This document shows positions 1,270 through 47,894 of a stretch of DNA of 64,000 bases, piece by piece (position 1 is the first letter of the stretch; each line of letters begins with the position of its first letter). Below the pieces are notes generated by a model. It made no database searches. It worked only from the letters and a program-made list of their open reading frames with translations, and was not told the DNA's origin. The stretch comes from a virus (taxonomy: Duplodnaviria > Heunggongvirae > Uroviricota > Caudoviricetes): IMG/VR virus record IMGVR_UViG_3300031998_000001, positions 109,064 through 173,063 of that record; one strand, 5' to 3'. The position numbers and the translations under genes were made by a program.

Positions 1270-2679
1270 ATGAGCGATACATTTAGCAAATCAAGTGAGA
1301 TGAGTGCGGAATATTGCTGCACTATTGTAAAGATAGGGGCGTTGAAGCCGATAGAGGGTTCGGATTTCCTCGCAACTACGGAGATAAACGGGCGCACGAT
1401 AGTAGTGCGCAAAGACCAAGTGAACGAGGGCGATGTTATGTTCTATGCGTCCAACGAGTCCCAGATTGACGCGGAGTTCCTCCGTGCCAACTCATTGTTC
1501 GAGGACAGGACTATGAACGCAGACCAAGAGCACAAGGGCTACTTCAACAAGTACGGGCGTGTCCGTATGGTCAAGTTGCGCGGAGTGCTTTCGATGGGGT
1601 ACATATTCTCCCTTGAGGAACTCGAAAGGTACGACCACATCGACATTACCCAGAGTGAACTCGAACACTTTGTCGGGGTGGACTTCGACGAGGTGAACGG
1701 CAAGTTGTTCATCAAGGCTTTCGTACCGCCTATGGCGTGCAACGGACACGGGAGCAGGGGTGCTGGCGGAAAGCCGATTAAGAGGGTGAACAGGCTTATT
1801 GCTGGCGAGTTGAGGTTTCATTATGACACGAACCAGTTGGAGCGCAACCCAGAGAAGTTGCAACCGTTCGATAGTGTGGCTATTTCGGTAAAAATGCACG
1901 GAACTTCGGGAATCTTTGCTAACATACCAGTCAAAGTTCCGTTGTTCGGAGGGTGGTATGCACGCAAGTTCAACCGACTCCCGAAGTGGCTTCGCTTTAT
2001 GAAGAAGGGCTATGACACGATATATTCTTCGAGGAAGATTATCCAGAACCCGTTTGTTGACTATGACACCGAGTTCAAGGTCAAGTCGGAGTATGACGAG
2101 TGGTACTCGATACTCAACGGGTGCATACCCCGCAACATTACAATCTACGGCGAGATAGTCGGCTACAAGCCGAGCGGGAAGGCTATACAGAAGAACTTCG
2201 ACTACGGTTGCAGGCAGGGAGAATCTGCCCTTATGATATACAGGGTGAAGTACCGCGACAAGCATACATCGCGCGAGTTCAGCGTGAACGAGGTCGTTGA
2301 CTTTACCCTTGACCTCCGCGACAGGCTCGAAGCGACGAAGAGTGCGGAGGTCGCATCAAGGCTCATTGCCTTGCCAGTGCTTTTCCACGGCTCGCTCGCG
2401 GACTTCTATCCCGACATACCGAAGGACGGGAACTGGGGGGCGAATGTCCTCGAAAGGCTCAAGACGGAAAAGAAGTTCGGTATGGAGCAGAACGAGCCTC
2501 TGTGCAGGAACAAAGTTCCGCGCGAGGGCATAGTCGTCCGCATAGACGGGGACTGCATTGCCGAAGCCTTCAAGTTGAAATGCCTGAAGTTCTTGGGCAA
2601 GGAGGCGGAGATGATTGACAAGGGTGAGATAGATGATGACGAGATGCTCTCCCGCTACGGCGATGGCGGTGAAATCTGA
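1270..2679 (+). CDS. ATP-dependent RNA ligase, Rnl2/Rnl5-like nucleotidyltransferase
   Basis: Covalent nucleotidyltransferase motifs are all present and in order. Motif I is KMHGTSG (compare T4 Rnl2 KIHGTN). Motif III is IYGEIVG. Motif IV is EGIVVR. Motif V is FKLKCLK. About 200 aa of N-terminal extension precede motif I. Confidence 0.7.
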   Translation: MSDTFSKSSEMSAEYCCTIVKIGALKPIEGSDFLATTEINGRTIVVRKDQVNEGDVMFYASNESQIDAEFLRANSLFEDRTMNADQEHKGYFNKYGRVRMVKLRGVLSMGYIFSLEELERYDHIDITQSELEHFVGVDFDEVNGKLFIKAFVPPMACNGHGSRGAGGKPIKRVNRLIAGELRFHYDTNQLERNPEKLQPFDSVAISVKMHGTSGIFANIPVKVPLFGGWYARKFNRLPKWLRFMKKGYDTIYSSRKIIQNPFVDYDTEFKVKSEYDEWYSILNGCIPRNITIYGEIVGYKPSGKAIQKNFDYGCRQGESALMIYRVKYRDKHTSREFSVNEVVDFTLDLRDRLEATKSAEVASRLIALPVLFHGSLADFYPDIPKDGNWGANVLERLKTEKKFGMEQNEPLCRNKVPREGIVVRIDGDCIAEAFKLKCLKFLGKEAEMIDKGEIDDDEMLSRYGDGGEI

Positions 2680-2784: not shown

Positions 2785-3495
2785 ATGAAGGTACTTGTTC
2801 TACTTGACAACGGACACGGGATAGACACTGCGGGGAAGAGAAGCCCGAAGTTGCCAGACGGCAGGCAGTTGCTCGAATACAAGTGGTGTCGGGAAACCGT
2901 AGCCCTTATAGCGAAACGGCTCGAAGTACTCGGCATAGAGTATAGGCTCGTAGCACCAGAGGAAAAGGACACCCCCCTCTCGACAAGGGTTTCGAGGGCG
3001 AACAAGTATTATGCCGATGCGAAGAAGGATGGCAAACTCGTTATGTTCATTTCAGTCCACGTGAACGCGAAGGGAATGGGGAACTGGGAGAATGCGCGGG
3101 GCTGGTCAACTTGGACTTCAAAGGGGGTTACGAAGGGCGATGCCCTTGCCCAGTGCCTCTGCGACGAGGCGAAGGAAATACTCCCGAAGCACAACCTCCG
3201 CTTCCGTAGCGACCGCTCGGACGGTGACGATGACTACGAGGCTAACTACTATGTCCTCGTCAATACGAATATGCCAGCCACATTGAGCGAGAACTTCTTT
3301 ATGGACAACAGGGAGGACTGCGAGTTCCTGCTCGACAGGAAGAGCAACGAACTCTGCGCCGACATACACACGGGGGGCATAGTCAGGTACATAAGGAAGT
3401 GCGGTTACTGGCAGGAGGGGGCGACAGAGGCGAGCGGGAGCACCCTTGTTATGAACACCCTCGAAGGCATATTCCACAAGTGCAGGCTCGTGTAG
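2785..3495 (+). CDS. N-acetylmuramoyl-L-alanine amidase (Amidase_3 family, endolysin-type)
   Basis: Amidase_3 signatures: LDNGHGIDTAG, FISVHVNA, ENFFMDNREDCEF. Confidence 0.75.
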   Translation: MKVLVLLDNGHGIDTAGKRSPKLPDGRQLLEYKWCRETVALIAKRLEVLGIEYRLVAPEEKDTPLSTRVSRANKYYADAKKDGKLVMFISVHVNAKGMGNWENARGWSTWTSKGVTKGDALAQCLCDEAKEILPKHNLRFRSDRSDGDDDYEANYYVLVNTNMPATLSENFFMDNREDCEFLLDRKSNELCADIHTGGIVRYIRKCGYWQEGATEASGSTLVMNTLEGIFHKCRLV

Positions 3496-3778: not shown

Positions 3779-5038
3779 TTAAAAGATTTTCTCGATTTCC
3801 TCTATGTATTTTCTACCGAACAGCGTATCGACAATCTTCCTTGCGAACGCCTCCTGCCTCTTGTCAACATCTGGTCTGTCGAGTTCTTTGTCTGAAATGT
3901 AATAGTTGATGCAAACTTCGACATCCCCGTCCAGATGCTTCCAATTTTCTTCGTCCATATATTGAACTGCAAACTCCACATTGCCTGCTCTGGTTCTTTC
4001 TTTTGAATACGGCTCAAACCTGCCCCTCTTCCAAACCGTGCCCCACGAGCATTCGTATCCGTTGCGCTTGAAATCCTCTTCATATGTATCTTCCATATCA
4101 TCTTGCCCTATTACCTCTACATCAAAATACTCACTCATAATTTTTCCAACGTAGATGCACATATCGTAAGGGTGTACACAAAACGGATAGCATACACCGT
4201 TGTCTTTGTATTCGTCATATAGGGGGGAACGCCCTCTATCTAAATTTGGTAGTGCGCGATACCCAAATTGCTTCAAAGCATTGTTAAATTTTCTTATGGT
4301 ATTTTCACCTGAAAATGATTTGTATTTTTCAACACCGTCCCAGTCGGTATTGTAGAAGTCAAAGTGCTTTTCCCACAACGGATAGAGGAAAGCGTCGATG
4401 TCTATGTGTATTGTTATTTTGTTTTCCTTTTCGGAGTGCGGGTCATACACCCGTTCAACATCCCAGTCGTTGACGATGCCTTGCTTGCGGTATTTGTCTG
4501 GCGCATTTGTAATGCCCCGTTCCAGTTTGTCCGACATAATCTTCCTGACATACCTGCTTCCGTCCCCATTGTAGAGTTTACCGTCCTTGCCGAGCAGGAG
4601 TTTGCTCCCGTCAACAACCACGCTTGCTATGATTGTGACACTCGACCTTGTGTCTGGTGTCTTGATTAGGTACGGGGTGAGGGGTGTCAAGTCAACCACC
4701 TCTACGCCTTTCGGCAATATAGCACCGTCAAGCATATCGCTCTGTACTTTGGCGCACGCCTCAAAGTCCTTTACACCAGAATATGTTACTGTGTGCTCGT
4801 GGTCTTTTCTGTCTTTCGATACAGCCTTTATACCAGCGTTCTTGTCCTTTGTGATTTCCTCGAACCAGATGTCGCTTATCAGGTTTCCGTTCCTGTCGGT
4901 CAGGTTGTAAAGCCCGTTCCTGTTCTTCACAATAAAATATGTCGAATCAAATATGTCGAACTCTTCATAGTCCTTGAACATATTTGGTCTCACCGCCATT
5001 TCATTGATAAATTCTTCAACTTTCAATATGCGTATCAT
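3779..5038 (-). CDS. hypothetical protein (about 419 aa), opposite orientation to flanking genes
   Basis: Long minus-strand ORF. The track start at 5044 is TTG; the first ATG is at 5038. No motif recognised. Confidence 0.55.
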   Translation of the reverse strand: MIRILKVEEFINEMAVRPNMFKDYEEFDIFDSTYFIVKNRNGLYNLTDRNGNLISDIWFEEITKDKNAGIKAVSKDRKDHEHTVTYSGVKDFEACAKVQSDMLDGAILPKGVEVVDLTPLTPYLIKTPDTRSSVTIIASVVVDGSKLLLGKDGKLYNGDGSRYVRKIMSDKLERGITNAPDKYRKQGIVNDWDVERVYDPHSEKENKITIHIDIDAFLYPLWEKHFDFYNTDWDGVEKYKSFSGENTIRKFNNALKQFGYRALPNLDRGRSPLYDEYKDNGVCYPFCVHPYDMCIYVGKIMSEYFDVEVIGQDDMEDTYEEDFKRNGYECSWGTVWKRGRFEPYSKERTRAGNVEFAVQYMDEENWKHLDGDVEVCINYYISDKELDRPDVDKRQEAFARKIVDTLFGRKYIEEIEKIF

Positions 5039-5126
5039 AATCAATATAGTTTATATGCTATCTTATTTATATTCTATGCTGGGCTTAAATATATAAATAA
5101 GTTGATTACAAATTATTTACATTCTT

Positions 5127-7508
5127 ATGGGAGAGAAAGAACAGGCTAACACGACCGTCTGGTCGTCGAAGTCGGTGGCGAAATATACCGATGACATAGA
5201 CTCTGGCGTTGAGCGCAAGGGAGAGTCCCCGTTCTTTATGGGCAACAAGAAGTATCGCAAGGCAAATCTATTGTTTGAATATACGCAGGAGGAGGTTGCC
5301 GAACTGCTCAAGTGCAAGAATGATGTCCGTTACTTCGCCAACCACTATGCGTGGGTCAAGAACGCTGCCGAGGGTGGTGCCGTCGCGCAGATAACATTGA
5401 GGGACTATCAGGAGGATGTCCTCAATGTCATTGATGAAAACAGGTTCTCAATTATTCTCGCAAGTAGGCAGTCGGGGAAATGCTCGATACATTCGACTAT
5501 AATTGATACGGAGAACGGCGAGAAACGGGCGATTGGCGAATTGTTCGATGACGGTGATACATTCCTGTCAAGGGTTAAACGCTTCTTATATAAGTTGCAC
5601 GGCATACGCTTCATCAAAAATATCACAGGGCATTTGATACAGTTCATTGAACACATCGAGAACAGGGGCAAGGCGGTTTATGACGGCAAGTTCATTGATG
5701 AGCAGGACATATCGCTTATGGTGAAAAGTGATACGGGGTTCGTGCCCGCCACGAAGGTATATAAGACAAAGCCGTACAATGTGTACGAGGTCTTTTTTAC
5801 GGACGGCACTAAAATAGAGTGTGCGGACACCCATATATTCTTTACAGGTGAACTTGCGGAGGTATTCTGCAAGGACTTGAAGTCAGGCGACCGCTTGTTC
5901 GGGGACGGGTGCATAAAGACCGTAAAGAGTGTCAGACGACATAACTACAAGTTCTGTATGTACGATGTGTCAGTTGACGATGACACGCACAGGTACTATA
6001 CCAACGGGGTGCTGTCCCATAACACTATCAGTTCTTCGATATACTTGGCTTGGTATCTCCTGTTCAACTATGACAAGAATGTCTTTCTTACCGCGAACAA
6101 GGAGCGCACCGCCCGCGATGTGCTGTCGAAAGTTCAGGAGATAATAGAGAATGTGCCGTTCTTTATGAAACCGGGCATATTGAAGTGGGGTGCGCTCGAC
6201 CTGAAGTTCGACAACGGTTGCAAGTGCATTGCCGAATCGACAACGCCCCGCTCTGGTATCGGCTTCACAATCAACCTGCTCTACTTGGACGAGTTCGCCC
6301 ACGTCGAGAAAGGCATCATAGACGAGTTCTACTCCAACATTATGCCTACCGTAACATCACTCCCAGACAGCAAGATTATCATCACTTCGACACCGAACGG
6401 AATGAACCTGTTTTATGAAATCTACTCGGCTGCGGAGAAGGGGCTTAACGGCTTCAAGCCGTACAGGATAGACTGGTGGCAAGTTCCCGACTGGGACAAG
6501 AACCAGCGCAAGTGGGTGAAGCGAGACGAGGAGTGGATGGAAAGGACGATAGCGATACTCGGAGGCGAGGACAGGGAACTCGGTCTTGAACGCTTCGGTG
6601 CGCAGTACGGCAACTCGTTCTTGGCTACGGGCAACCTGCTCATATCCCCGAACGGCTTGAAGCGTATGGAGGAGAGCAAGGTGCAGTTCGTTCAGGACGA
6701 GAGCGACATATTCGACAGGTACGAGATAGAGGAGGCGAAGTACCTGCGGTGGCATCCAGATATTGATGTGCCGTCGCTGAAAACCAACACGAAGGACTTT
6801 TTCCTCATAAGCGTTGACCTCTCGGAAGGCAACGGGGGCGACTTCCTCGTGTCGGACATTTTCCGCGCTGGGGTTATGTCCCGCGAGGATGTTGAGGCAT
6901 TGCACACCCCGAACAAGATTTCCGACTATGTGTGCTTGGAGCAGGTCGGGGTATGGGCGCACAACTATATGTCCCTGAAGAACTTTGCGAAGTTCCTCTA
7001 TGTGCTGACGCACAAGTTGATGAACCCAGAGAATTTGAAGATAATCCTCGAATGGAACGCATTTGGCGGGGAGGTTATGTCGGAACTCGGATATGTGTTC
7101 GGGGACAGGAACGACTTCTCGAAGGATGTCATACTCAAATTCAAGCACAGCATAGACAGCGACATATACAAGTACGGCTTGAAGGTCAATGCCGAGAACA
7201 AGAAGATACACTGCCAGATGATGCGCACCAACACGGCTTGCGGGCGTATGATAGTCCACGACATACCGACCATAAAGGAGTTCAACCTGTTCGGGCTACG
7301 GAAGAACAGTTATGCCGCCATAACGGGGCACGACGACTTGGCGATGACCTGCGTGAACGCAAACGCCTTCTTCGAGACGAGGGCTTTCGGGTGGATTTCC
7401 GACAATGTGATTGCGGAGAGCGGGCGTATGCAGGAACTGCTCGATGCGATGAAGGTCAACGGTGACCCCGATGTCGAGTACGGGAGCATATATTCGGCGG
7501 CATTCTGA
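5127..7508 (+). CDS. terL: terminase large subunit, intein-containing
   Basis: Walker A ASRQSGK|T is interrupted by an intein. Walker B-like LLYLDEFAHV is present. The C-terminal nuclease-like half is present. The size fits once the intein is removed. Confidence 0.85.
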   Translation: MGEKEQANTTVWSSKSVAKYTDDIDSGVERKGESPFFMGNKKYRKANLLFEYTQEEVAELLKCKNDVRYFANHYAWVKNAAEGGAVAQITLRDYQEDVLNVIDENRFSIILASRQSGKCSIHSTIIDTENGEKRAIGELFDDGDTFLSRVKRFLYKLHGIRFIKNITGHLIQFIEHIENRGKAVYDGKFIDEQDISLMVKSDTGFVPATKVYKTKPYNVYEVFFTDGTKIECADTHIFFTGELAEVFCKDLKSGDRLFGDGCIKTVKSVRRHNYKFCMYDVSVDDDTHRYYTNGVLSHNTISSSIYLAWYLLFNYDKNVFLTANKERTARDVLSKVQEIIENVPFFMKPGILKWGALDLKFDNGCKCIAESTTPRSGIGFTINLLYLDEFAHVEKGIIDEFYSNIMPTVTSLPDSKIIITSTPNGMNLFYEIYSAAEKGLNGFKPYRIDWWQVPDWDKNQRKWVKRDEEWMERTIAILGGEDRELGLERFGAQYGNSFLATGNLLISPNGLKRMEESKVQFVQDESDIFDRYEIEEAKYLRWHPDIDVPSLKTNTKDFFLISVDLSEGNGGDFLVSDIFRAGVMSREDVEALHTPNKISDYVCLEQVGVWAHNYMSLKNFAKFLYVLTHKLMNPENLKIILEWNAFGGEVMSELGYVFGDRNDFSKDVILKFKHSIDSDIYKYGLKVNAENKKIHCQMMRTNTACGRMIVHDIPTIKEFNLFGLRKNSYAAITGHDDLAMTCVNANAFFETRAFGWISDNVIAESGRMQELLDAMKVNGDPDVEYGSIYSAAF
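5481..6023 (+). other. mini-intein (181 aa, Hint domain, no homing-endonuclease domain) inside terL P-loop
   Basis: Starts with Cys immediately after the Walker A lysine (CSIHSTIIDT, block A). Block B is ECADTHIFFT. Blocks F/G are MYDVSVDDDTHRYYTNGVLSHN followed by the extein Thr. Confidence 0.8.
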
Positions 7509-7702
7509 CAGGCATTATAAATAGGTTATATATAGCATATTTGTTGCGGAACAAACTCTTAAAAACAACTTGGCAACGGGGCATACGAACCAAAGAAGAT
7601 GTCGAAGGACAGGGTGAAGGAAGTTCTGTTGTCGTATCGTACAGACAACCAAACGGTTGGAGAGAATGTATGAAAATAGTTCACTTTCTTCTAAATAATA
7701 AA

Positions 7703-7740
7703 TCCCGCCATAATGACGGGCTTTGCTTTTTCATATTTTT
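7703..7740 (+). terminator. weak terminator candidate
   Basis: Short stem CCCG...CGGG followed by a T-rich run (CTTTGCTTTTTCATATTTTT). Confidence 0.3.
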
Positions 7741-7796
7741 TCTGAAATCATTATTTATTAACTATATATTAGTTATGGAAAGAAAAACATAACACT
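7735..7796 (+). promoter_or_regulatory. conserved promoter/5'-UTR cassette, copy a
   Basis: TTTTCTGAAAT-N-CTATATATTAG...GGAAAG..ACA ending at the ATG of 7797. See the cassette finding for consensus. Confidence 0.55.
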
Positions 7797-8207
7797 ATGG
7801 ATAACAACAGCAACAGCAGAGAGAGATTTGGGGTGGCACTTGTAAAGTACGCCTGCCCGATTTGCGGAAAGGTCAACGAGGACGCAACCGCAGTAGCAGT
7901 GAACAGAAGGTTGACGAAGCCCTGCGCGGACAAGGTTCGTGAACTCAACGGACAATGCGTGGGCTTTTCGGAGAAGCCCTGCAAGGAGTGCCAGTCCTAT
8001 ATAGACAAGGGCGCATTCTTCATCATAGGCGTTGACGGGGAGAAGTCAACCGATATGCGCAACCCGTACCGTTCGGGACACCTTGTGGGCATAAGCAAGA
8101 AGTCCGACTTCTATGCCAGCCTGCCAGAAGAATACAAGAGGAAGCCAGCGGTGTTTATGGACTACCGCGAGATGATGGCTTTGAAAATGATAGCCGAAAA
8201 CAAGTAA
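7797..8207 (+). CDS. hypothetical Cys-rich protein (CPICG...CKEC)
   Basis: ORF directly after the cassette. Zinc-ribbon-like Cys pairs. Confidence 0.55.
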   Translation: MDNNSNSRERFGVALVKYACPICGKVNEDATAVAVNRRLTKPCADKVRELNGQCVGFSEKPCKECQSYIDKGAFFIIGVDGEKSTDMRNPYRSGHLVGISKKSDFYASLPEEYKRKPAVFMDYREMMALKMIAENK

Positions 8208-11508: not shown

Positions 11509-11970
11509 ATGGGAAGGAAGTACACGAACTTATTGCAGGAAACACTGGAGGCGGCTGGCTACAAGAGCGTCACCGAGTTCGCCCGAAAGATAATGTTCGC
11601 CCGCGTGGGTATTGACACGACAGTACCGCAGGAAAGGGCATACCTGAAGGAGAATGCGGTTGACGAGTACGGGCATACGAGGTTGTTCCTCACGCTTCCG
11701 CCATATCATATGGAGGAGGATGCCCACCTGTTCGCCAATATGCTTGATGTCCTCTACTACAACGGATTCGGGACGCAGGAAGTGTTCGGGGAGATTGCAC
11801 TTGCGGACGGGCAGTGGCTCTCCCGCAAGGAGTATGACGGAAGCGAGGAGTGGGAGTTGTGCTATTATCCGTCTTGGAACGATATGTGCAACGCCAACTG
11901 GAACGACGAGTTCAGGGACTGCAAGTTAAAAATAAATGAAAGCGATGAAAGCGAAGAAGAACATAGTTGA
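11509..11970 (+). CDS. hypothetical protein
   Basis: ATG MGRKYTNLL after an RBS-like GGGGGAATAG. In-frame with track ORF 11449. Confidence 0.5.
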   Translation: MGRKYTNLLQETLEAAGYKSVTEFARKIMFARVGIDTTVPQERAYLKENAVDEYGHTRLFLTLPPYHMEEDAHLFANMLDVLYYNGFGTQEVFGEIALADGQWLSRKEYDGSEEWELCYYPSWNDMCNANWNDEFRDCKLKINESDESEEEHS

Positions 11971-12472
11971 GAGGGGCAAGGAGTTGTCCTTCCTGTTGAG
12001 GCACGACAAGGAATATGCCTTTGACGAGCACGGCTGGCGCGAGGTCGCCGACCTGATTGAAAGGCACGGTTACACGATGGATGAACTCGAAGAGATAGTT
12101 GCGACCAACGACAAGAAGCGGTACGAGTTCTCGGATGACAGAAAGCGCATACGCGCCCGTCAGGGGCATAGCGTCGATGTCGATGTGGAATTGAAGGAGT
12201 GCGTACCGCCCGATACATTGTATCACGGGACTGCCGCAAGGTTCGTTGACCAGATACTCCGCGAGGGCATTACGAAGCAGTCGAGGCTTTATGTGCATTT
12301 GTCTGCGGATGTTTCGACAGCGTTCAAGGTCGGAAAGCGTCACGGGACACCATCGGTGCTTGCGGTGGATGCTATGGAAATGGTGGCGGACGGGCATAAG
12401 TTCTATTTGAGCAACAACGGTGTCTGGCTCACGGAGTATGTGCCGACCAGATACCTCAATGTCGTGATGTGA
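11936..12472 (+). CDS. RNA 2'-phosphotransferase Tpt1/KptA family
   Basis: Family motifs present: LSFLLRH (Arg-His), IRARQGHS, LYHGT, LYVHLS, VGKRHG, NNGVWLTEYVP. Confidence 0.75.
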   Translation: MKAMKAKKNIVERGKELSFLLRHDKEYAFDEHGWREVADLIERHGYTMDELEEIVATNDKKRYEFSDDRKRIRARQGHSVDVDVELKECVPPDTLYHGTAARFVDQILREGITKQSRLYVHLSADVSTAFKVGKRHGTPSVLAVDAMEMVADGHKFYLSNNGVWLTEYVPTRYLNVVM

Positions 12473-20315: not shown

Positions 20316-20696
20316 ATGGAAGAAAAAGTAAACACAAAGGAAGCGTTCTGGTGGGACGGGAAGAAGTTCGAGCAGTTCGACGATTTGTTCCGCCGTTGCA
20401 CCGACCTTGCGAAGAAAAGGCGCACGGAAAAGAAGGCTGTCGAGATGTTCAACGGCTACGCCAAGTACATAGGCGAGGTCAACGGCTTGTCGGATGAAAA
20501 GGCTATGGAGTGCGCGAAGCACAACTTCGGCTACCACGCTGGTCGGTACGACAGGGAGACGGAGGATGCGGTCAATAGGGTGCTCGGTGCTTTCCACCCG
20601 TACTTCGGGGGGAGGAACTCCCACGATGTAACGCCAGAGGAGGCGATGAACGCTGGAATGAGGTATTTCACGGAATTGCATAACGAAAACAAATAG
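20316..20696 (+). CDS. hypothetical protein
   Basis: Packed ORF. Confidence 0.5.
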   Translation: MEEKVNTKEAFWWDGKKFEQFDDLFRRCTDLAKKRRTEKKAVEMFNGYAKYIGEVNGLSDEKAMECAKHNFGYHAGRYDRETEDAVNRVLGAFHPYFGGRNSHDVTPEEAMNAGMRYFTELHNENK

Positions 20697-20701
20697 GAAC
20701 T

Positions 20702-21502
20702 ATGAAGGACGCATTAGGCGACAGGATGAAAAGGTACGAGGCGAACGCGGACATAAGGCTTGTCCGCAGGACACCCGTGATAATAAGGATTGACGGCAAG
20801 GCTTTCCACACATTCACAAAGAAGTTCGACAAGCCGTTCGACCAAGTTTTTATGAAGGCTATGTTCGGGACGGCTCTGACATTGTGCGAGAACATACAGG
20901 GCTGTCGGCTCGGCTATACCCAGAGCGACGAGATTTCGCTCCTGCTGACCGACTACGAGAAACTGAACACAGACCCGTGGTTCGACAACCGCATACAGAA
21001 GATGTGCTCGATAGCCGCCTCGATAGCGACGCTCGCATTCAATCGGGCTTTCGAGCGTGCGGTAAGGGAGATTTCGGGGGAATATCCAGCCGAAAAGGTT
21101 GCGACATACAAGAGGAGCATTGCAATGGGCGGGATTTTCGATGCACGCGCATACAATGTCCCGAAGGACGATGTTACCAACTACTTCCTGTGGAGGCAGA
21201 ACGATGCCACCCGCAACTCGATACTTGGGGTAGGTCAGAGCGAGTTTACGCGCAAGAGGCTGATGAACAAGTCGTGCGACGAGATACAGGAGATGCTCTT
21301 TTTGGAGAAGGGCATAAACTGGAACGACTACGACACACCTCTCAAGAGGGGCGTGTGCATAAGGAAGGTCGGCAAGGAGGTCAACGGCACAGTGAGGAAC
21401 TTCTGGGAGATAGACTACGATATTCCGATATTCAGGGGCGAAGGTCGGGAGTATGTCGAGCAACTTGTGTTTCCAAACATTGACGAAAATGGAAGGGAAT
21501 AA
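20702..21502 (+). CDS. Thg1-like protein (tRNA-His guanylyltransferase family; 3'-5' nucleotide addition enzyme)
   Basis: MKRYEAN...RTPVIIRIDGKAFHTFTKKFDKPFDQ...GYTQSDEISLLL. This matches the Thg1/TLP core VVRIDGRAFHKF..KP.D...AYGQSDEISF. Confidence 0.7.
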   Translation: MKDALGDRMKRYEANADIRLVRRTPVIIRIDGKAFHTFTKKFDKPFDQVFMKAMFGTALTLCENIQGCRLGYTQSDEISLLLTDYEKLNTDPWFDNRIQKMCSIAASIATLAFNRAFERAVREISGEYPAEKVATYKRSIAMGGIFDARAYNVPKDDVTNYFLWRQNDATRNSILGVGQSEFTRKRLMNKSCDEIQEMLFLEKGINWNDYDTPLKRGVCIRKVGKEVNGTVRNFWEIDYDIPIFRGEGREYVEQLVFPNIDENGRE

Positions 21503-21710
21503 CTACTTGGACGAAAAGAGGAAGTTGTCGAAGGACACATACCGATGCGAGTGGAAACCCGCCTGTCGGGAGTGTGCCTTCTTCAACCACTCGATACTGA
21601 TATGCAGGCTGAACGAAATGCCCGTCAGGGCTGACATCGGTATCTGCGACGCATTCGAGCAGAATACCCGTATGGACGGTATTCCGTTTTCGGACGGGCG
21701 AAGTTTGTGA
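21489..21710 (+). CDS. hypothetical small Cys-rich protein
   Basis: ATG MEGNNYLDEKRK; four CxxC-like cysteines. Confidence 0.35.
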   Translation: MEGNNYLDEKRKLSKDTYRCEWKPACRECAFFNHSILICRLNEMPVRADIGICDAFEQNTRMDGIPFSDGRSL

Positions 21711-21742
21711 TTTTTCTGAAATTATAATAAATAGCCTATATA
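21710..21742 (+). promoter_or_regulatory. conserved promoter cassette, short copy d
   Basis: TTTTTCTGAAATTATAATAAATAGCCTATATATTGGTC. Confidence 0.45.
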
Positions 21743-22399
21743 TTGGTCTTGATGAAGAAGTCGGAGGACAGGATAATGTTTCGGAGCGGTGACAGGTACG
21801 GGATAGCGGACGGCTATGACATTGACGGAAGGTACATATACCCGAAGTCGGCGCAGGTTACAATGGACACCAACGGCAATACGGGCGTGTACTTCACCGA
21901 CAAGTTGTGGACACCGCCGAGCGCAACGGCAGTCCTTTCGGATGATGAGTATGTTGCTTTGAATCGGGAGTTTATGAAGTTGAGGAAACTTACGGATATA
22001 CAGCGAAGCACGCTTGACGCTATGGTAACTGCGAAACTGCGCAGGTCGGAGTCGAAGGAAGGTGACGGCATCGTGTTCGGCAGGAAGGTGCTTGTCCGCG
22101 ACATAGGCGGGGACAGGAACACACGTTACGGGATAGCGGAAAGTTGCACGGTGTCGGAGAACGGACGCACACTCAATCCGAAGTCACCGAAGACAGTGAT
22201 GGAAAGTCTCGGTATTACGGGCACATTCTTCGACAGCAGGTACTGGATTGTGCCAGAAACAATGTTTGTTCTTACGGATAGTGAATACGATATGCTTGAA
22301 GCAGGCTTCACGGAGATAAGGGAGATTATGGGCGCACAGCGCAATGCGCTTGTCGCGCTCGGAGAATTAAAGTTAAGGGGTGAAACGAATGAAAACTAA
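21743..22399 (+). CDS. hypothetical protein with twofold internal duplication
   Basis: DRYGIADGYDIDG...YFTDKLW...LSDDEY...L is repeated later as TRYGIAESCTVSENG...FFDSRYW...LTDSEYDML. Confidence 0.55.
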   Translation: MVLMKKSEDRIMFRSGDRYGIADGYDIDGRYIYPKSAQVTMDTNGNTGVYFTDKLWTPPSATAVLSDDEYVALNREFMKLRKLTDIQRSTLDAMVTAKLRRSESKEGDGIVFGRKVLVRDIGGDRNTRYGIAESCTVSENGRTLNPKSPKTVMESLGITGTFFDSRYWIVPETMFVLTDSEYDMLEAGFTEIREIMGAQRNALVALGELKLRGETNEN

Positions 22400-23291
22400 A
22401 ACGAACAATAACGGACTGAAGATGGTCATATTGCAGGGTGTTCCCGCAAGTGGCAAGACGACTTGGGCGAAGGAGTTCACCAAGAAGAAAAAGAACTGGG
22501 TGATTGTTTCCCGCGATGCCCTCGAAGAAGCGTCTGGCGGTTGCAAGGGCGTAAACCAGAACGGCTATGTGAACCAACTCGTGAAGTTCTCGATTATGAG
22601 TGCTTTCGAGAGGGGGCTTAATGTCGTGGTTGACGGTATGAACCTTGCCACAGACGAGGTGCAGGTGCTTCAGGACATCGCAAGGGACTACGGCGCGGAG
22701 GCGGAGCGCAGGGAGTTCCGCATAAGCCTGCCCGATGCGCTCGAACGGAACGCCAAGCGCACGGACAAGCACATATCGCCCGACAAAATAAAGGAGTTGT
22801 ATCGGGAGTACATCCCAGAGGAGTACAGGTATTACAACACCGACCACCGCAGGATAATGAATGCCAACCCAGACCTCCCGCCAGCCGTGATATGCGACAT
22901 AGACGGGACTGTGGCGTTGAGGAACGGGCGTTATGTGTTCGACAACCAGAAGGCGATAGAGGATACTTTCGACCCGCGTATGAAAAGACTGCTCTCGTTG
23001 CTCGAAAAGTCGGGCGTTGAAATCATATTCCTTTCTGGTCGGGAGGGGACGGATGAGTGCAGGGATGTAACGGAACGCTGGCTTGCGCTTCACGGCTTCG
23101 GGCATTGCAAACTCCTTATGCGCCCGAAGGGTGACAGCAGAGGCGACGAGGATGTCAAGTACAGCCTGTGGCATACGCTCGTAGCACCCAACTATGATGT
23201 GGTTGCGGTGTTCGACGACAGGGACTGCGTGGTGAAGATGTGGAGAAGTCTTGGGCTTCTGTGCAATCAGGTCTATTACGGAAACTTTTAG
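22389..23291 (+). CDS. pnk: polynucleotide 5'-kinase / 3'-phosphatase (T4 Pnk-like, Pnkp)
   Basis: N-terminal P-loop VILQGVPASGKTTW. C-terminal HAD-type phosphatase DIDGT (DxDxT) with SGREG and FDDRD. The track start 22380 is GTG; ATGs are at 22389 and 22422. Confidence 0.75.
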   Translation: MKTKTNNNGLKMVILQGVPASGKTTWAKEFTKKKKNWVIVSRDALEEASGGCKGVNQNGYVNQLVKFSIMSAFERGLNVVVDGMNLATDEVQVLQDIARDYGAEAERREFRISLPDALERNAKRTDKHISPDKIKELYREYIPEEYRYYNTDHRRIMNANPDLPPAVICDIDGTVALRNGRYVFDNQKAIEDTFDPRMKRLLSLLEKSGVEIIFLSGREGTDECRDVTERWLALHGFGHCKLLMRPKGDSRGDEDVKYSLWHTLVAPNYDVVAVFDDRDCVVKMWRSLGLLCNQVYYGNF

Positions 23292-23302
23292 CATTGATAA
23301 AT

Positions 23303-23587
23303 ATGAATGATAATAACAGCATCGCAAGGAAGATTGTGAAGGACGGCGCGAAGAAAAGGTGCTGTCCCGAACTCTCGGACGGTGATATGTTCGACGGGGC
23401 GTTGAGGATGGCGCAGTGGAAGGACAGGAGAGCCAAGACGGTGATAATGGACATCGTGTCGAACATACTCATAGACACCGAATATACGGAGGGCAAGGTT
23501 GATGCCTGCTCCGAAATCTACGAGAGGCTGTTCGGGGAGAAACTCATAATAAGGGGCGGCGCAATGGACAATAGCAAGGAGGAATAG
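23303..23587 (+). CDS. hypothetical protein
   Basis: ATG MNDNNSIARK, in-frame with track ORF 23240. Confidence 0.45.
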   Translation: MNDNNSIARKIVKDGAKKRCCPELSDGDMFDGALRMAQWKDRRAKTVIMDIVSNILIDTEYTEGKVDACSEIYERLFGEKLIIRGGAMDNSKEE

Positions 23588-23589
23588 TT

Positions 23590-24036
23590 ATGGCAAGGGA
23601 ATTATCGGCGGGAATAATAATAAAGTGCAAGAGTGGCTACCTTATGTGCCACCCGACAGGAAGGAAGTACGAGCGCGGGAACTACGACATACCGAAAGGT
23701 CACGTGGAGGGCGATGACAATACATACCTCGATGCCTGCCTGCGCGAACTCGAAGAGGAGACTGGCATAGTGCTCTCGGAGAACGATGCAAGGCAAATCA
23801 GGACGATAGGTCGCACGGACTACAACCCGAAGAAAGACCTCTACCTGTTCTACCTGTGGCTTCCGTACGACATAGACACGAGGAAACTCACCTGCAAGTC
23901 TATGTTCACCGCGAAGGACGGGCGGGAAGTCCCAGAGATGAACGGGTATATGCTCTCTATGGACATTGGCTGGCTCTATCCGAATATGAAGAAGGTGTTT
24001 GACCGGCTGCTCGACATTGACGGCAACCTGATTTAG
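23590..24036 (+). CDS. Nudix hydrolase
   Basis: Nudix box GHVEGDDNTYLDACLRELEEETGI (Gx5Ex7REUxEExGU). Confidence 0.75.
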   Translation: MARELSAGIIIKCKSGYLMCHPTGRKYERGNYDIPKGHVEGDDNTYLDACLRELEEETGIVLSENDARQIRTIGRTDYNPKKDLYLFYLWLPYDIDTRKLTCKSMFTAKDGREVPEMNGYMLSMDIGWLYPNMKKVFDRLLDIDGNLI

Positions 24037-27520: not shown

Positions 27521-28315
27521 ATGATGACGGCTATGGAAATTAAGAAAACGGAAGATTTTTTAACGGGACGGACGGAAGCCAGCGCAGTCGCGGGGCTTGC
27601 TGGAAGCCCTGTGTATGAAAGTTCAATCAACAGGATAACGCACTGGATTGAAAATCACGAAATTGCCCTGATTACAGCATTCAGGGGTAAAAAGGAGAAC
27701 ATAGAGAATGCCGATGCCGTAAAGGATGACGGCAAGCCGATGGGCTACAGGTACACGCATAAGGAGAACAGGGAAAGAAACCGTGAACTTGGGGCGGCAC
27801 TGCTCGGTCTTGGGTACGGCATAACGAAGGTGGGCGGCGTTTATGTCGAGAACTTCGGTATGGACAACGCACGCCTTTCCGACGAGGAGACACTGCTTGT
27901 CGTCAACAAGGACGGCAGGGACGGGTTCTACGACAATATATTCAGGCTGTCCGAATACTACGACCAAGACTGCTTCTGCTACAAGCCGAAGGACGATAAT
28001 GTCGGATATAACATCGGGACGAACTCGTCGGACTATCCCGGCTATGGAAACCGTGTACGCAACGGCAAGTTTACGGTCGGTGTCAAGAATATGTTTATGA
28101 CAAGGCTTGGAAACAAGGGGTTTGCTTTCACGGATGCCGAAGACCTTGGCAGTTTCTCGACGACACACAAAACGAGAAAGGCGGAGCGTATTTCAAAGCG
28201 GACGGAGAGCGCGATTAACGAAGTGTTCGATTATTTTTCCGACTACGGTCTCGGAGGAAAGCAGTCTATCTGGAACATAGCGAACCCGATTATGAAAATC
28301 TTGGAGAAGAAGTAG
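27521..28315 (+). CDS. hypothetical protein
   Basis: Packed ORF. Confidence 0.55.
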   Translation: MMTAMEIKKTEDFLTGRTEASAVAGLAGSPVYESSINRITHWIENHEIALITAFRGKKENIENADAVKDDGKPMGYRYTHKENRERNRELGAALLGLGYGITKVGGVYVENFGMDNARLSDEETLLVVNKDGRDGFYDNIFRLSEYYDQDCFCYKPKDDNVGYNIGTNSSDYPGYGNRVRNGKFTVGVKNMFMTRLGNKGFAFTDAEDLGSFSTTHKTRKAERISKRTESAINEVFDYFSDYGLGGKQSIWNIANPIMKILEKK

Positions 28316-31598: not shown

Positions 31599-32435
31599 AT
31601 GGAAAAAAGAACAAAAGTAATCGTAGGCGTAATAATCGCCGCATTGTTTATGTTAGTTATGTGCTTTGTAACCCGCTGCTCGAAGGTCGATACGGCGGAG
31701 GTCGGCATCAAGTTCAACAAGTTGAGCCTCACCGAGCAGGGGACGCTCGACGCGACAATAGTTTCGGGCTACACTTGGTACTGCCCGATAACGACAGACC
31801 TGCACACATACCCGACATTCGTGCAGAGAAAGAACTACCCGCCGTTTACCGTAAATACGAAGGATGCTGCCGAGTTCACTATGGACCCGAACATCGCATA
31901 CCAGATTAACCGAGACCGAGCGATAGACATATTCCAGAAATACCGCAAGGCACTTGAGGAGATAGAGGACGGGTATATGCTCACGGTCATAAAGGATGCG
32001 TACAGGATAACGGCAAACAGATATACATCCGACAGCATAATGGGAAACCGAGCAAGATTCGAGAGCGAGGTGCGGACAATGCTTGACACGGCACTCTCCA
32101 ACGAAGGCTTTATGGTGACGGAATTTACCTCCCAGATTACACCGCCAGCGTCCCTGCGTGCAATGATAGACTCGAAGAATGCAGCGATACAGTCGGCACT
32201 CAAAGCCGAAAATCAGGTGAAGGAGGCGGAAGCCAACGCCAAGATAGCCGTTGCAAAGGCGCAGGGGGAAGCGGAAGCCCTGAAGATAAAGGCTGACGGT
32301 GAGGCTTACTACAACCGAACCGTTGCTGCCTCGTTGAACCAGATACTCGTCCAGCAGTATGCGATAGAGAAGTGGAACGGCGTGATGCCACAGGTCACTG
32401 GCACTGGCTCTATGCCAATGATTGACCTCAAATAG
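31599..32435 (+). CDS. SPFH/band-7 (HflK/C- or prohibitin-like) membrane protein
   Basis: N-terminal TM helix VIVGVIIAALFMLVMCFV. SPFH-like core. C-terminal AENQVKEAEANAKIAVAKAQGEAEALKIKADGEA helix typical of HflK/C. Confidence 0.6.
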   Translation: MEKRTKVIVGVIIAALFMLVMCFVTRCSKVDTAEVGIKFNKLSLTEQGTLDATIVSGYTWYCPITTDLHTYPTFVQRKNYPPFTVNTKDAAEFTMDPNIAYQINRDRAIDIFQKYRKALEEIEDGYMLTVIKDAYRITANRYTSDSIMGNRARFESEVRTMLDTALSNEGFMVTEFTSQITPPASLRAMIDSKNAAIQSALKAENQVKEAEANAKIAVAKAQGEAEALKIKADGEAYYNRTVAASLNQILVQQYAIEKWNGVMPQVTGTGSMPMIDLK

Positions 32436-36017: not shown

Positions 36018-36467
36018 ATGGACGACGAAAGAAAGTATATGGACGACGAGAAGTCGATGGCTAACACGCTCCCGTTTGATGCGGAGCAAGCCAAGCAGGG
36101 AAAGCCCGTGTGTACAAAGGACGGACGACCAGTAAGAATATTGTGCTACGACAGGGACAATGACCTTCCGATAGTTGCACTCATAAGGGAGTGGGACGGG
36201 GAACAGAGCGTGGCGACATACACAATGGAAGGCGTTGCGGGGACTGGTGATGCTATGGACAACCTCGCGATAATCGGGGTGGTGTGCAAGGGCTACACGG
36301 CAGTCCTGAAGGACGCACCGTACAACCCAGAAAAGTTGCCCTGCTATAATGACAGGTGCGTGAACGGCTTGATATTCGATAAGCCCGAAGATGTCATCGA
36401 AACTATGAAGAAGTTGGAACTCGCCGATTTGCTTGTGGGAGTTGCCGAAACCAAATGGATTGAATAA
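36018..36467 (+). CDS. hypothetical protein
   Basis: ORF. Confidence 0.5.
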   Translation: MDDERKYMDDEKSMANTLPFDAEQAKQGKPVCTKDGRPVRILCYDRDNDLPIVALIREWDGEQSVATYTMEGVAGTGDAMDNLAIIGVVCKGYTAVLKDAPYNPEKLPCYNDRCVNGLIFDKPEDVIETMKKLELADLLVGVAETKWIE

Positions 36468-36468
36468 A

Positions 36469-37320
36469 ATGCTGAAAGATATGGAAGGAAAGGAGTATAA
36501 AAACAGAGGCGTGGGTGTCGTAACGCTTGTTATGACATTCATAGGAGGCAAGGCTCACATACTTGCCAACCAGAGGGGCGACAAGACTTCCGAGCAGGGC
36601 TTGCTGTGGAACTTGCCGAGCGGATACCTCGACTGGAATGAAACTGCGGAGATGGCTGCGGCGAGGGAAATCAGGGAGGAGTGCGGTGTCGAAATTGCAC
36701 CGAGCGAACTCACGGAACTGGAACACTCGACAGACCCGGCGGAGAACAGGCAGAACATAATGTTCCGATACATTGCGGTCGTGGAAGCCGAACGCCTCCG
36801 CGACTTCAAGGCTATGGACGCGGACGAAGTTAGGGACATAAGGCTCATACCGCTTTCCGACATAGAGCAGTACAGGTGGGCTTGGGGGCAGAACCGCAAG
36901 ATATACCGCCTGATAAACAAGTACAACGAGTATGCGGAGAAGAAGGTTATGACATTCGGCAGGTTCAAGGGCTGTGTAATCGACGAAGCGTTTACAAGCC
37001 AGAATTGGGCATATCTCGAATGGGCTTATAAGAATGTCGGGGAAGTCGTAAAGTGGTTCAAGAACGGCTTGAAAAAGCCCCGTACGGCATATACGCCAAA
37101 GCCCGCTCCAAGCATCAGCCGATATTATGGCTCTGGACACGGCTACGGTGATGACGACGATGATGAGAACAGGCGTTGCGGGAACTGCCCGCACGGTGGC
37201 TACGACTCCTGTTCGGACTACTGCGATGCCTGTCGGCACGACCCAGACACGGGCTGGGGCGGGGAGACCGACCATAGCCTGTGCAGTGATAGCGAGGAGA
37301 CGGGCTGGGGTGGGGATTAG
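36469..37320 (+). CDS. Nudix hydrolase fused to DUF3820-like segment and Cys-rich acidic tail
   Basis: Nudix box GYLDWNETAEMAAAREIREECGV. Middle segment is FGRFKGCVIDE...YLEWAYKN. The tail is CGNCPHGGYDSCSDYCDACRHD plus two GWGG motifs. Confidence 0.65.
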   Translation: MLKDMEGKEYKNRGVGVVTLVMTFIGGKAHILANQRGDKTSEQGLLWNLPSGYLDWNETAEMAAAREIREECGVEIAPSELTELEHSTDPAENRQNIMFRYIAVVEAERLRDFKAMDADEVRDIRLIPLSDIEQYRWAWGQNRKIYRLINKYNEYAEKKVMTFGRFKGCVIDEAFTSQNWAYLEWAYKNVGEVVKWFKNGLKKPRTAYTPKPAPSISRYYGSGHGYGDDDDDENRRCGNCPHGGYDSCSDYCDACRHDPDTGWGGETDHSLCSDSEETGWGGD

Positions 37321-46533: not shown

Positions 46534-47733
46534 ATGTATATCGCACCGTCGGATGTATTCATATTCGAGAACTACGGGGACGACCTGTTGAGGCTCACCC
46601 CCGAAACAAAGGGCGCACTCCTCCGCTGTGACAGGCGTTTCCACAAGTTGATGGAGGAGTATGAGAGGGAACACGTGCATTTCGCAAATGTGAAGAATGT
46701 CCGTTCCGAGATAGACAAGTACCTTGAAGCGAGGAAGAAGGGCAAGAGCCACAGGTTGAGGCTCGAATACGAGGACAGCAAGTTCTCGGACGACAAGTGG
46801 TGCGACGGGATGATTGGGAAACTCGGAGAACTCAAGAACGATTTGATAACCGTTGACTGCTACCTCACGAAGTTCTACATATACAGGATTGACCGAACGA
46901 TAGACAGCATAATGTTCCTCAACGAATACTCGCACGATGAAAACGCCTTCCCGAAGAACATAAAGCGTCCTTCGGAGAAACTCTACCGCAAGGCACTCGA
47001 ATACCTCGTGAAGTACAAGTACCAGAGCGTACAGGAACTCGCGGACAAGGACGAGGACTACAGGAGGGTGTTCACCCCAGAGGAGAGCAGGAAGCGTTTA
47101 CAGAAAATCATCGACAAACTCGGCTACGGCTGGAAGGTCATCATAGACGACAATATGGTTCCGAGAATGAGCGTGAGACCGTATCGGGAGTTCAGGATAA
47201 ATGCGAAAAACAACTTCAGCGAGGTTGACCTCCGCTCCCTCGAAGTCCACGAGATAGAAGTCCACACGGCTCGCAAGGCGAATGCGTTGAAAACAGGGCT
47301 GTACCTGTTCCTATACGGGCTTGAGGGGGACAACATATATGACGAGGGGCTTGCAATCTACAACTCCCTCAACAAGGCGGAGAAGCCGAAGCCGAACATA
47401 ATCTTCTTCATAGCGATAAAGATTGCCATACTCTACAACCTCTACATTATGGACACGGACGCTCTGTACGAGATGCTACTCGGCTTGACCGAAGCACCAG
47501 AGGAGGTCGTGGTGTACGCAATCATAAGGGCGATGAGGGTGTTCTCGTTCACGACGACCGAGACGGCATACACGGACACCGACTACCTTGACGGGTACGA
47601 GAGGGTTAAGGAGATGGACTCGGCACTCAAGAAAGACCTCCTGCTCTACACGATAGGACCCGACCAGTTGTATGAACTCCCGATAATAAAGAAGTTTATG
47701 CAGGTAAACAAGTTCAAGCCTCTGGAGGTGTAG
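46534..47733 (+). CDS. DUF1704/QEGLA-motif (MATCAP-like) putative metallo-carboxypeptidase
   Basis: HEIEVH (HExxxH spacing), then DEGLA about 30 residues later. Size about 400 aa is typical of the family. Confidence 0.4.
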   Translation: MYIAPSDVFIFENYGDDLLRLTPETKGALLRCDRRFHKLMEEYEREHVHFANVKNVRSEIDKYLEARKKGKSHRLRLEYEDSKFSDDKWCDGMIGKLGELKNDLITVDCYLTKFYIYRIDRTIDSIMFLNEYSHDENAFPKNIKRPSEKLYRKALEYLVKYKYQSVQELADKDEDYRRVFTPEESRKRLQKIIDKLGYGWKVIIDDNMVPRMSVRPYREFRINAKNNFSEVDLRSLEVHEIEVHTARKANALKTGLYLFLYGLEGDNIYDEGLAIYNSLNKAEKPKPNIIFFIAIKIAILYNLYIMDTDALYEMLLGLTEAPEEVVVYAIIRAMRVFSFTTTETAYTDTDYLDGYERVKEMDSALKKDLLLYTIGPDQLYELPIIKKFMQVNKFKPLEV

Positions 47734-47818: not shown

Positions 47819-47894
47819 TTTTCTGCTACTCGCAGAATTTACACCTGCATTATTATAGTCCCTACCTTTGCGATGTAACCAAAGGCAACGGACT

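Follow-up and report, generated by a model that had tools for sequence, protein, structure and literature searches.

A large tailed phage encodes an intact bacterial-type Thg1-like protein next to predicted RNA-repair genes

The window analysed here is a stretch of 64,000 nucleotides (positions 109,064 to 173,063 of the IMG/VR record IMGVR_UViG_3300031998_000001) from a large tailed phage, and the gene under study is the open reading frame (ORF) at 20702..21502. Its product is almost certainly an intact, bacterial-type Thg1-like protein (TLP). To our knowledge, no polymerases other than the enzymes of the Thg1 family make nucleic acid in the 3′-to-5′ direction. On balance, we favour a role for this TLP within an RNA-repair toolkit of the phage, in which its step would be the templated refilling of 5′-truncated tRNAs. 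The gene and the domains of its product are as follows.

20702..21502, + strand: TLP gene, 266 amino acids, recognised by PF04446 (116 bits), PHROG 4717, PDB entry 4kgk, conserved catalytic residues, AlphaFold2 fold and pN/pS (the ratio of nonsynonymous to synonymous differences)
TLP residues ~7-154: RRM-like palm catalytic domain
TLP C-terminal part: C-terminal domain, containing the beta-hairpin E218-238

The ORF starts with an ATG and contains both peptides, VIIRIDGKAFHTFTKKFDKPFDQ and GYTQSDEISLLL, that a sequence-only reading of this DNA had quoted from it, so that the gene stands as first delimited. The Pfam Thg1 profile (PF04446) matches over its positions 2-130 of 130, with a score of 116.1 bits that is well above the cut-off of 29.2, and PHROG 4717 (‘tRNA-His guanylyltransferase’) matches with E=5.7e-91. 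The best sequence match in the PDB is the TLP of Bacillus thuringiensis (BtTLP; 4kgk/4kgm). The alignment covers residues 3-259 with E=3.2e-67, and identity over the full length is 50% (121/239 aligned positions). The Pfam Thg1C profile taken alone remained below its threshold (17.8 < 26.3); the alignment with BtTLP nonetheless extends to residue 259. Further PDB matches were the archaeal TLP 5axk (E=5e-16) and eukaryotic Thg1 enzymes (E=6e-12 to 1e-8, with ~22-26% identity), which places the phage protein nearer to the characterised TLPs than to eukaryotic Thg1.

The predicted structure agrees with these matches. An AlphaFold2 model built on 38 homologues reached a mean predicted local distance difference test (pLDDT) of 87.4 and a predicted template modelling score (pTM) of 0.86. 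When it was compared with the PDB by Foldseek, the top 32 matches were all Thg1/TLP chains, and the next match had E=0.01. A palm enzyme of the GGDEF or mini-Cas10 type was considered and rejected, as GGDEF/Cas10 folds appeared in the fold search only at E>=0.02, versus 1e-27 for TLP. The assignment to the Thg1/TLP family, made at first from the letters alone, is therefore upheld by profile, by closest structure and by a fold that matches only Thg1/TLP, and no non-Thg1 family gives a better match.

The active site was then read against that of BtTLP, in which D30, D75 and E76 are the conserved carboxylates (D29/D76/E77 in hTHG1), the equivalents of K43 and S74 (K44 and S75 in ScThg1) serve 5′-end activation, the incoming nucleoside triphosphate (NTP) is bound by R28 and R131, with E12, and the ribose is contacted by H35 (PMC3701042). 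The same work reports R147 as an important residue of the yeast enzyme, and the position of ScThg1 N161 (BtTLP M158) as not conserved between TLPs and Thg1 (PMC3701042). The catalytic acidic residues are not missing from the phage protein: the metal-binding Asp/Glu residues, for which an alignment had been suggested, are found as D31, D76 and E77, aligned to BtTLP D30/D75/E76 and invariant in the 38 homologues. The residues whose importance in BtTLP and Thg1 was established by mutagenesis or crystallography are all there: in the HMMER alignment, E13, R29, D31, H36, K44, S75, D76, E77, R149 and R165 are identical to their BtTLP counterparts. Nine of these ten catalytic residues occupy invariant columns across the 38 homologues, and all ten, together with K100, are unchanged in three close relatives (loci L086, L089 and L081). 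The phage TLP is thus predicted, from its residues, to be catalytically competent.

The substitution pattern points in the same direction. Compared with relatives at 96% and 73% amino-acid identity, the TLP gene has a pN/pS of 0.19-0.25, and it is under purifying selection. One close relative, L087, has a broken TLP (4829-5687), with an insertion of ~61 nucleotides and a frameshift, between flanks that are 99.8-100% identical to L088; the gene has either become a pseudogene recently or been misassembled.

The HINNLYN motif is the mark of the eukaryotic Thg1 enzymes that are specific for tRNA-His and its anticodon. In the alignment with C. albicans Thg1, the phage protein has TRNSILG opposite HINNLYN, and because the motif is missing we class the ORF as a TLP and not as a tRNA-His-specific Thg1. 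In vitro, all bacterial and archaeal homologues tested prefer the repair of 5′-truncated tRNAs, which is Watson-Crick-templated and independent of the GUG anticodon (PMC6471195, a 2019 review). In an archaeal TLP, the equivalent of the C-terminal beta-hairpin contacts the T-arm of the tRNA (PMC6471195), and this hairpin is kept in the model of the phage TLP.

Four other genes of the window encode predicted RNA-repair enzymes.

22380..23291, + strand: PNKP, a T4-type polynucleotide 5′-kinase/3′-phosphatase (Pfam HAD_PNKP and AAA_33, PHROG 505, PDB)
23590..24036, + strand: Nudix hydrolase, 148 amino acids (Pfam NUDIX 41 bits, cut-off 21; PHROG 1185, E=1e-26)
11936..12472, + strand: Tpt1/KptA RNA 2′-phosphotransferase, ~8 kb upstream of the TLP gene and on the same strand
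1270..2679, + strand: ATP-dependent RNA ligase with an N-terminal OB domain, ~18 kb upstream of the TLP gene

The PNKP and Nudix genes lie 0.9 kb and 2.1 kb downstream of the TLP gene, on the same strand and separated by short gaps or overlaps. PNKP scores 140 bits with HAD_PNKP, 54 bits with AAA_33 and E=4e-74 with PHROG 505, and is matched over its full length by Capnocytophaga Pnkp1 (4xrp, E=2e-35) and T4 Pnkp (1ltq, E=3e-34). It has the P-loop GVPASGKT at residue 20 and the HAD motif DIDGT (DxDxT) at residue 173; its true start is likely the ATG at 22389, which gives 300 amino acids as in the relatives. The catalytic helix of the Nudix protein, RELEEETGI, is intact. Tpt1 is recognised by Pfam PTS_2-RNA (148 bits), PHROG 5470 (E=5e-62) and PDB 7kw8 (E=7e-48), and has the same position in L086. 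For the ligase, PHA02142 OB gave 37.9 bits, above the cut-off, and RNA_ligase 26.0 bits, just below the cut-off of 27; PHROG 968 (‘RNA ligase’) matched with E=5e-44, and a weak match was found to the N-terminal domain of NgrRnl (5cot/6vt5). Its architecture appears to be of the PHA02142 type, similar to Naegleria-Deinococcus Rnl5. The sequence-only reading had proposed that the gene deals with damage to tRNA 5′ ends. This seems reasonable, and it is strengthened by the presence of PNKP, Nudix, Tpt1 and RNA ligase, neighbours of which that reading made no mention.

The arrangement is kept in the lineage of the window. In L086-L089 the order is TLP, Cys-rich ORF, two ORFs of 149 and 76 amino acids, PNKP, an ORF of 90 amino acids and Nudix, with Tpt1 upstream. 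Two relatives whose TLPs are 72-73% identical have PNKP and Nudix less than 3 kb from the TLP gene, in a block that is inverted (opposite strand), and one of them, the 73% relative on a contig of GCA_016648615.1, has the same type of ligase at a distance of 1.1 kb from that gene. Nudix is next to or near PNKP in each of the three diverged relatives of the lineage. On a wider scale, a PNKP homologue was found within 8 kb of the TLP gene in 44/80 IMG/VR loci, and the same type of ligase in 19. We had taken the first of these counts as strong linkage and downgraded it to suggestive, as 48 of the 80 loci belong to one lineage and only 3/20 clusters are linked once the loci are de-replicated at 80% TLP identity. 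By a rough estimate, PNKP would lie within ~3 kb of TLP in ~6 of ~23 lineages, compared with ~4% expected per lineage; the estimate counts the window lineage and the two 72-73% relatives as three extra clusters, and assumes a genome of ~150 kb with one randomly placed PNKP. The recurrence of the TLP-PNKP linkage is therefore suggestive.

A repair sequence can be proposed from these activities. tRNAs would be damaged by ribonucleases of the host or of a competitor, or by host toxins, and the toolkit would keep the tRNA pool usable. PNKP would turn 5′-OH ends into the 5′-phosphate needed by the TLP, and would clear 3′ or 2′,3′-cyclic phosphates. By homology to BtTLP, the TLP would activate the RNA 5′-monophosphate with ATP or GTP, or use a 5′-triphosphate directly, and then add Watson-Crick-templated nucleotides in the 3′-to-5′ direction, the template being the opposite strand of the helix, for example the 3′ strand of the tRNA acceptor stem. 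The RNA ligase would seal nicks, and Tpt1 and Nudix may remove 2′-phosphate, ADP-ribose-type, App/ppp-type (pyrophosphate-linked) or similar end groups. The linkages on which Nudix enzymes act are of the nucleoside-diphosphate-X kind, and 5′ ppp/App ends left by reverse polymerisation are for this reason plausible, if speculative, Nudix substrates. A counter-defence purpose would fit such a scheme.

Several points weigh against this reading. We know of no phage defence in which a host nuclease takes nucleotides off the 5′ end of tRNAs, and a search of the literature returned no experimental paper on a phage TLP. Proximity by itself carries little weight, because large phages tend to group their auxiliary genes in any case, and Tpt1 and the ligase, at 8 and 18 kb, are not in the same operon as the TLP gene. 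The linkage is not universal either: among the 20 de-replicated IMG/VR clusters, a T4-type PNKP lies within 8 kb in only 3 and the ligase in 6. No annotated repair gene adjoins the TLP gene in two Bacillus phages, and no T4-type PNKP was found near it in 51 genome-collection loci (mostly Paenibacillus), in a tblastn search whose only query was the PNKP of the window and which would have missed other kinase families. Finally, the biological substrates of bacterial and archaeal TLPs are still unidentified (PMC6471195).

Three other accounts of the TLP were weighed. It could be a dedicated tRNA-His enzyme that adds or restores G-1 opposite C73 on a host or phage tRNA-His. This is how PHROG 4717 and most of the 164 phage records found with a TLP name the protein, and tRNA arrays do occur near TLP genes in some related phages (L068, L078, L071 and L051). 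We nevertheless find this account improbable. The phage protein does not conserve the HINNLYN region; tRNA and Rfam scans of the 64-kb window detected neither a tRNA gene nor an Rfam family, which leaves no local link to tRNA-His, and no tRNA-His was present within 8-10 kb of the TLP gene in 38 related loci. Bacterial tRNA-His genes normally encode G-1, which is retained by RNase P, and the activity would for this reason be redundant. Bacterial and archaeal TLPs can add G-1 opposite C73 in vitro, but they are independent of the GUG anticodon and favour truncated tRNAs over full-length tRNA-His (PMC6471195).

Alternatively, the TLP may act on substrates other than tRNA, by extending or re-triphosphorylating the 5′ ends of small RNAs or mRNAs of phage or host, or by making App/ppp ends for Nudix, as part of a remodelling or regulatory module. 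The tight pairing of PNKP and Nudix in this lineage would suit a chemistry of 5′-end groups, the in-vivo substrate of every prokaryotic-type TLP is still unknown, and some TLPs, DdiTLP4 among them, have been regarded as possibly using substrates other than tRNA (PMC6471195). On the other hand, every biochemically characterised prokaryotic TLP acts on tRNA-like helices, the hairpin that would contact the tRNA T-arm is kept in the model (E218-238), and nothing in the window, which has no Rfam match, points to a specific non-tRNA target. This possibility is, to us, a doubtful one. That the gene is a decaying or functionless passenger acquired from a bacterium, as the interrupted L087 copy and the sporadic distribution among phages might suggest, is very hard to believe given that all catalytic residues are intact, that pN/pS is still ~0.2 at 73% identity and that TLP is retained across many phage lineages.

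With the refilling of truncated tRNAs retained as the favoured role, we turn to the genes immediately around the TLP gene.

20316..20696, + strand: ORF of 126 amino acids, ending 5 nucleotides before the TLP start; 92% identical in L086, same position
21489..21710, + strand: Cys-rich protein, 73 amino acids (85 from the ATG at 21453); coding substitution pattern, kept after TLP
21743..22399, + strand: protein of 218 amino acids, two tandem copies of a ~100-residue unit
23240..23587, + strand: small ORF between PNKP and Nudix, 90 amino acids in relatives; 98% identical to the L086 gene

The sequence-only reading had noticed that the 3′ end of the TLP gene overlaps a small Cys-rich ORF, and rightly so: the ATG at 21489 lies 14 nucleotides inside it. 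The alternative ATG at 21453 makes the overlap 50 nucleotides, and the resulting form of 85 amino acids is the one used by gene callers in the relatives. Outside the overlap, comparison of the ORF in its own frame with four relatives gave a pS of 0.22 and a pN of 0.047 (pN/pS 0.21), while in the two shifted frames of the region pN exceeded pS (ratio >1.5). Its counterparts in L086-L089 share 90% identity with the protein and that in L081 ~70%, and each of them immediately follows TLP. It has a conserved core, DTYRCEWKPxCxECxFFNHSILICxLNEMPVRADIGICDAF, whose five cysteines are retained even in L081, where the TLP is 73% identical. The ORF is absent from the relative L082. No Pfam or PHROG match was found for the protein, and only one homologous cluster among 5.8 billion proteins. 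Its substitution pattern indicates a real gene, and this gene is lineage-specific. As its start overlaps the TLP stop, it may be translationally coupled to TLP.

On the other side, 5 nucleotides separate the ORF of 126 amino acids from the TLP gene, and the two are probably co-transcribed. The two halves of the 218-residue protein are 38% identical (E=7e-19), and its counterpart in L086 consists of two adjacent ORFs, of 149 and 76 amino acids, with 86% identity. The neighbours of 126, 218, 115 and 196 amino acids gave no Pfam or PHROG match. A more specific scheme would make the whole block 20316-24036 a dedicated pathway for rebuilding tRNA 5′ ends, directed against an undescribed host nuclease that strips the 5′ nucleotides of the acceptor stem, with the Cys-rich protein as an accessory subunit of the TLP and with Nudix trimming the 5′-ppp/App end. 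We consider it unlikely; if it is true, a prokaryotic-type TLP would for the first time have a known physiological substrate and a known pathway.

The phage setting is confirmed by the following two genes of the window, by the tight packing of co-directional genes and by the presence of TLP relatives on IMG/VR contigs of 90-330 kb.

5127..7508, + strand: T4-type large terminase with intein, 793 amino acids (Intein_splicing at residues 187-257, upstream of Terminase_6N at 304-437)
2785..3495: Amidase_3 endolysin

The best matches of the terminase are uncultured huge-phage records of 460-640 kb. Nearly all genes of the window are on the + strand, and the majority have no family match. Close relatives, with ~92% nucleotide identity, come from metagenomic contigs that measure 143 kb or as much as 231 kb; a contig of 231 kb carries the Cys-rich ORF. 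No host could be assigned: the nearest matches in genome collections are contigs of 150-186 kb from metagenome-assembled genomes, binned to unrelated taxa (Bacteroides, Clostridium, Mollicutes), and these are probably mis-binned phage.

Some other features of the window were recorded. An IS1595-family transposase (47868-48827, + strand; DDE_Tnp_IS1595 115 bits, plus a zinc ribbon) coincides with a dip in GC content between 48000 and 52000 (0.41-0.44 versus ~0.50) and also adjoins the only block of genes on the minus strand, at ~48.8-57 kb; the region looks like an insertion sequence (IS) insertion or a module boundary. At 27521-28315 (+ strand), a weak, sub-threshold match to S-adenosylmethionine (SAM) lyase was obtained (25.1 bits, cut-off 28), and the GCA_016648615.1 contig has a SAM synthetase gene and at least 7 N6_N4 DNA methyltransferase genes near TLP, which hints at a heavy investment in anti-restriction and methylation. 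At 46534-47733 (+ strand), a protein of 399 amino acids gave a match of 44 bits, above the cut-off, to MATCAP (microtubule-associated tyrosine carboxypeptidase), a metallopeptidase family that is unusual for a phage. An SPFH/Band_7 protein (31599-32435, + strand, 68 bits) is conserved in both L086 and the GCA_016648615.1 contig, where its relative position is unchanged. A second Nudix protein is encoded at 36433-37320 (+ strand, 295 amino acids, NUDIX 55.7 bits), with a weak ExoX-like match in its C-terminal part.

TLPs have been annotated in many phages. Of the 164 GenBank phage records in which tblastn detected them, 46 are from Bacillus phages, 15 from Prevotella, 13 from Caulobacter and 11 from Mycobacterium phages; the usual annotation is tRNA-His guanylyltransferase. 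In all, >8000 TLP homologues and 178 IMG/VR loci were recovered. A megablast of window positions 12-32 kb against GenBank phages gave no nucleotide-level match, hence there is no annotated close relative in that collection. Among the loci recovered, a tRNA-Ser(UGA) gene is located 4-8.5 kb downstream of TLP in L044, L047, L053, L060 and L070, and arrays of 11 tRNA genes are found near TLP in L068 and L078; none of these genes encodes tRNA-His. In Paenibacillus azoreducens (L114), a Tpt1/KptA homologue at 7336-7836, 38% identical to the Tpt1 of the window, lies ~0.6 kb downstream of a bacterial TLP gene.

Conserved neighbourhoods of Thg1 and polynucleotide kinase, some with Macro or RNA ligase, were described by Anantharaman, Iyer and Aravind in 2010, who argued that the kinase supplies the 5′-phosphate substrate of Thg1, noted the Thg1 copy of Pseudomonas phage 201phi2-1 and suggested RNA repair against host defences (PMC2904730). 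Thg1, KptA and PNK-HAD were later listed among the RNA-repair components of jumbo phages, the distribution of Thg1 among phages being sporadic (Iyer et al. 2021; PMC7824862). A phage-borne TLP, like the repair logic proposed for it, is thus already in the literature and would not surprise a specialist; since phage TLPs are widely annotated, and both kinase coupling and repair role have been predicted, the TLP of the window adds no new idea. Its value lies in being an intact and clean case, usable for biochemistry, in a gut-phage lineage that is abundant. Phage TLPs that stand beside PNKP, Nudix, Tpt1 and RNA ligase offer a good starting point in the search for the natural substrate of TLPs, and perhaps for a host defence by which tRNA 5′ ends are damaged.

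Compared with BtTLP, the phage TLP has the same carboxylates, activation Lys/Ser, NTP-binding Arg and fold, and by analogy the same chemistry would be expected, that is, templated 3′-5′ addition and repair of 5′-truncated tRNAs. It differs by an insertion of ~17 residues (~121-143) after the long palm helix, modelled as helical and variable in the clade, and by two substitutions at base-stacking positions of the activation site, M158 to G176 and L49 to F50. In addition, unlike BtTLP, it is phage-encoded, and the 3′ end of its gene overlaps the Cys-rich ORF. With eukaryotic Thg1 (yeast, human, C. albicans) it shares the fold and the two-metal palm active site; in contrast to these enzymes, the HINNLYN region is not conserved, and the phage TLP is expected to be template-dependent and anticodon-independent.

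The phage genes annotated as tRNA-His guanylyltransferase, such as those of Bacillus phages BSP36, TsarBomba and Bc431v3 and of Pseudomonas phage 201phi2-1, belong like the present one to the PHROG 4717 family and to large tailed phages. The TLP of the window is, however, at most 59% identical to any phage record in GenBank, and it stands beside PNKP and Nudix, whereas in the Bacillus phages examined neither a PNKP nor a ligase is annotated next to the TLP gene.

The bacterial Thg1-PNK neighbourhoods and the jumbo-phage repertoire resemble the present case in that TLP appears to be linked to polynucleotide kinase and RNA ligase, with KptA/Tpt1 and PNK-HAD in the same genome, and the predicted logic, in which the kinase would supply the 5′-phosphate for TLP, is the same. 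The partner in the window is, by contrast, a T4-type bifunctional kinase-phosphatase, Nudix takes the place of the Macro domain, two conserved ORFs are interleaved, and Tpt1 and the ligase are distal and not operonic.

The T4 Pnkp-Rnl1 system repairs tRNA and thereby counters the anticodon nuclease PrrC. The PNKP of the window is homologous over its full length to that of T4 and of the Capnocytophaga Pnkp1-Rnl-Pnkp2 system, a phage-encoded ligase is likewise present, and the purpose, restoring cleaved tRNAs, is presumed to be the same as in T4. T4 has no TLP, and the ligase of the window is of the OB-domain (Rnl5-like) type, not Rnl1. The added TLP would imply that lost 5′ nucleotides are refilled as well, a step beyond the healing and sealing of T4.

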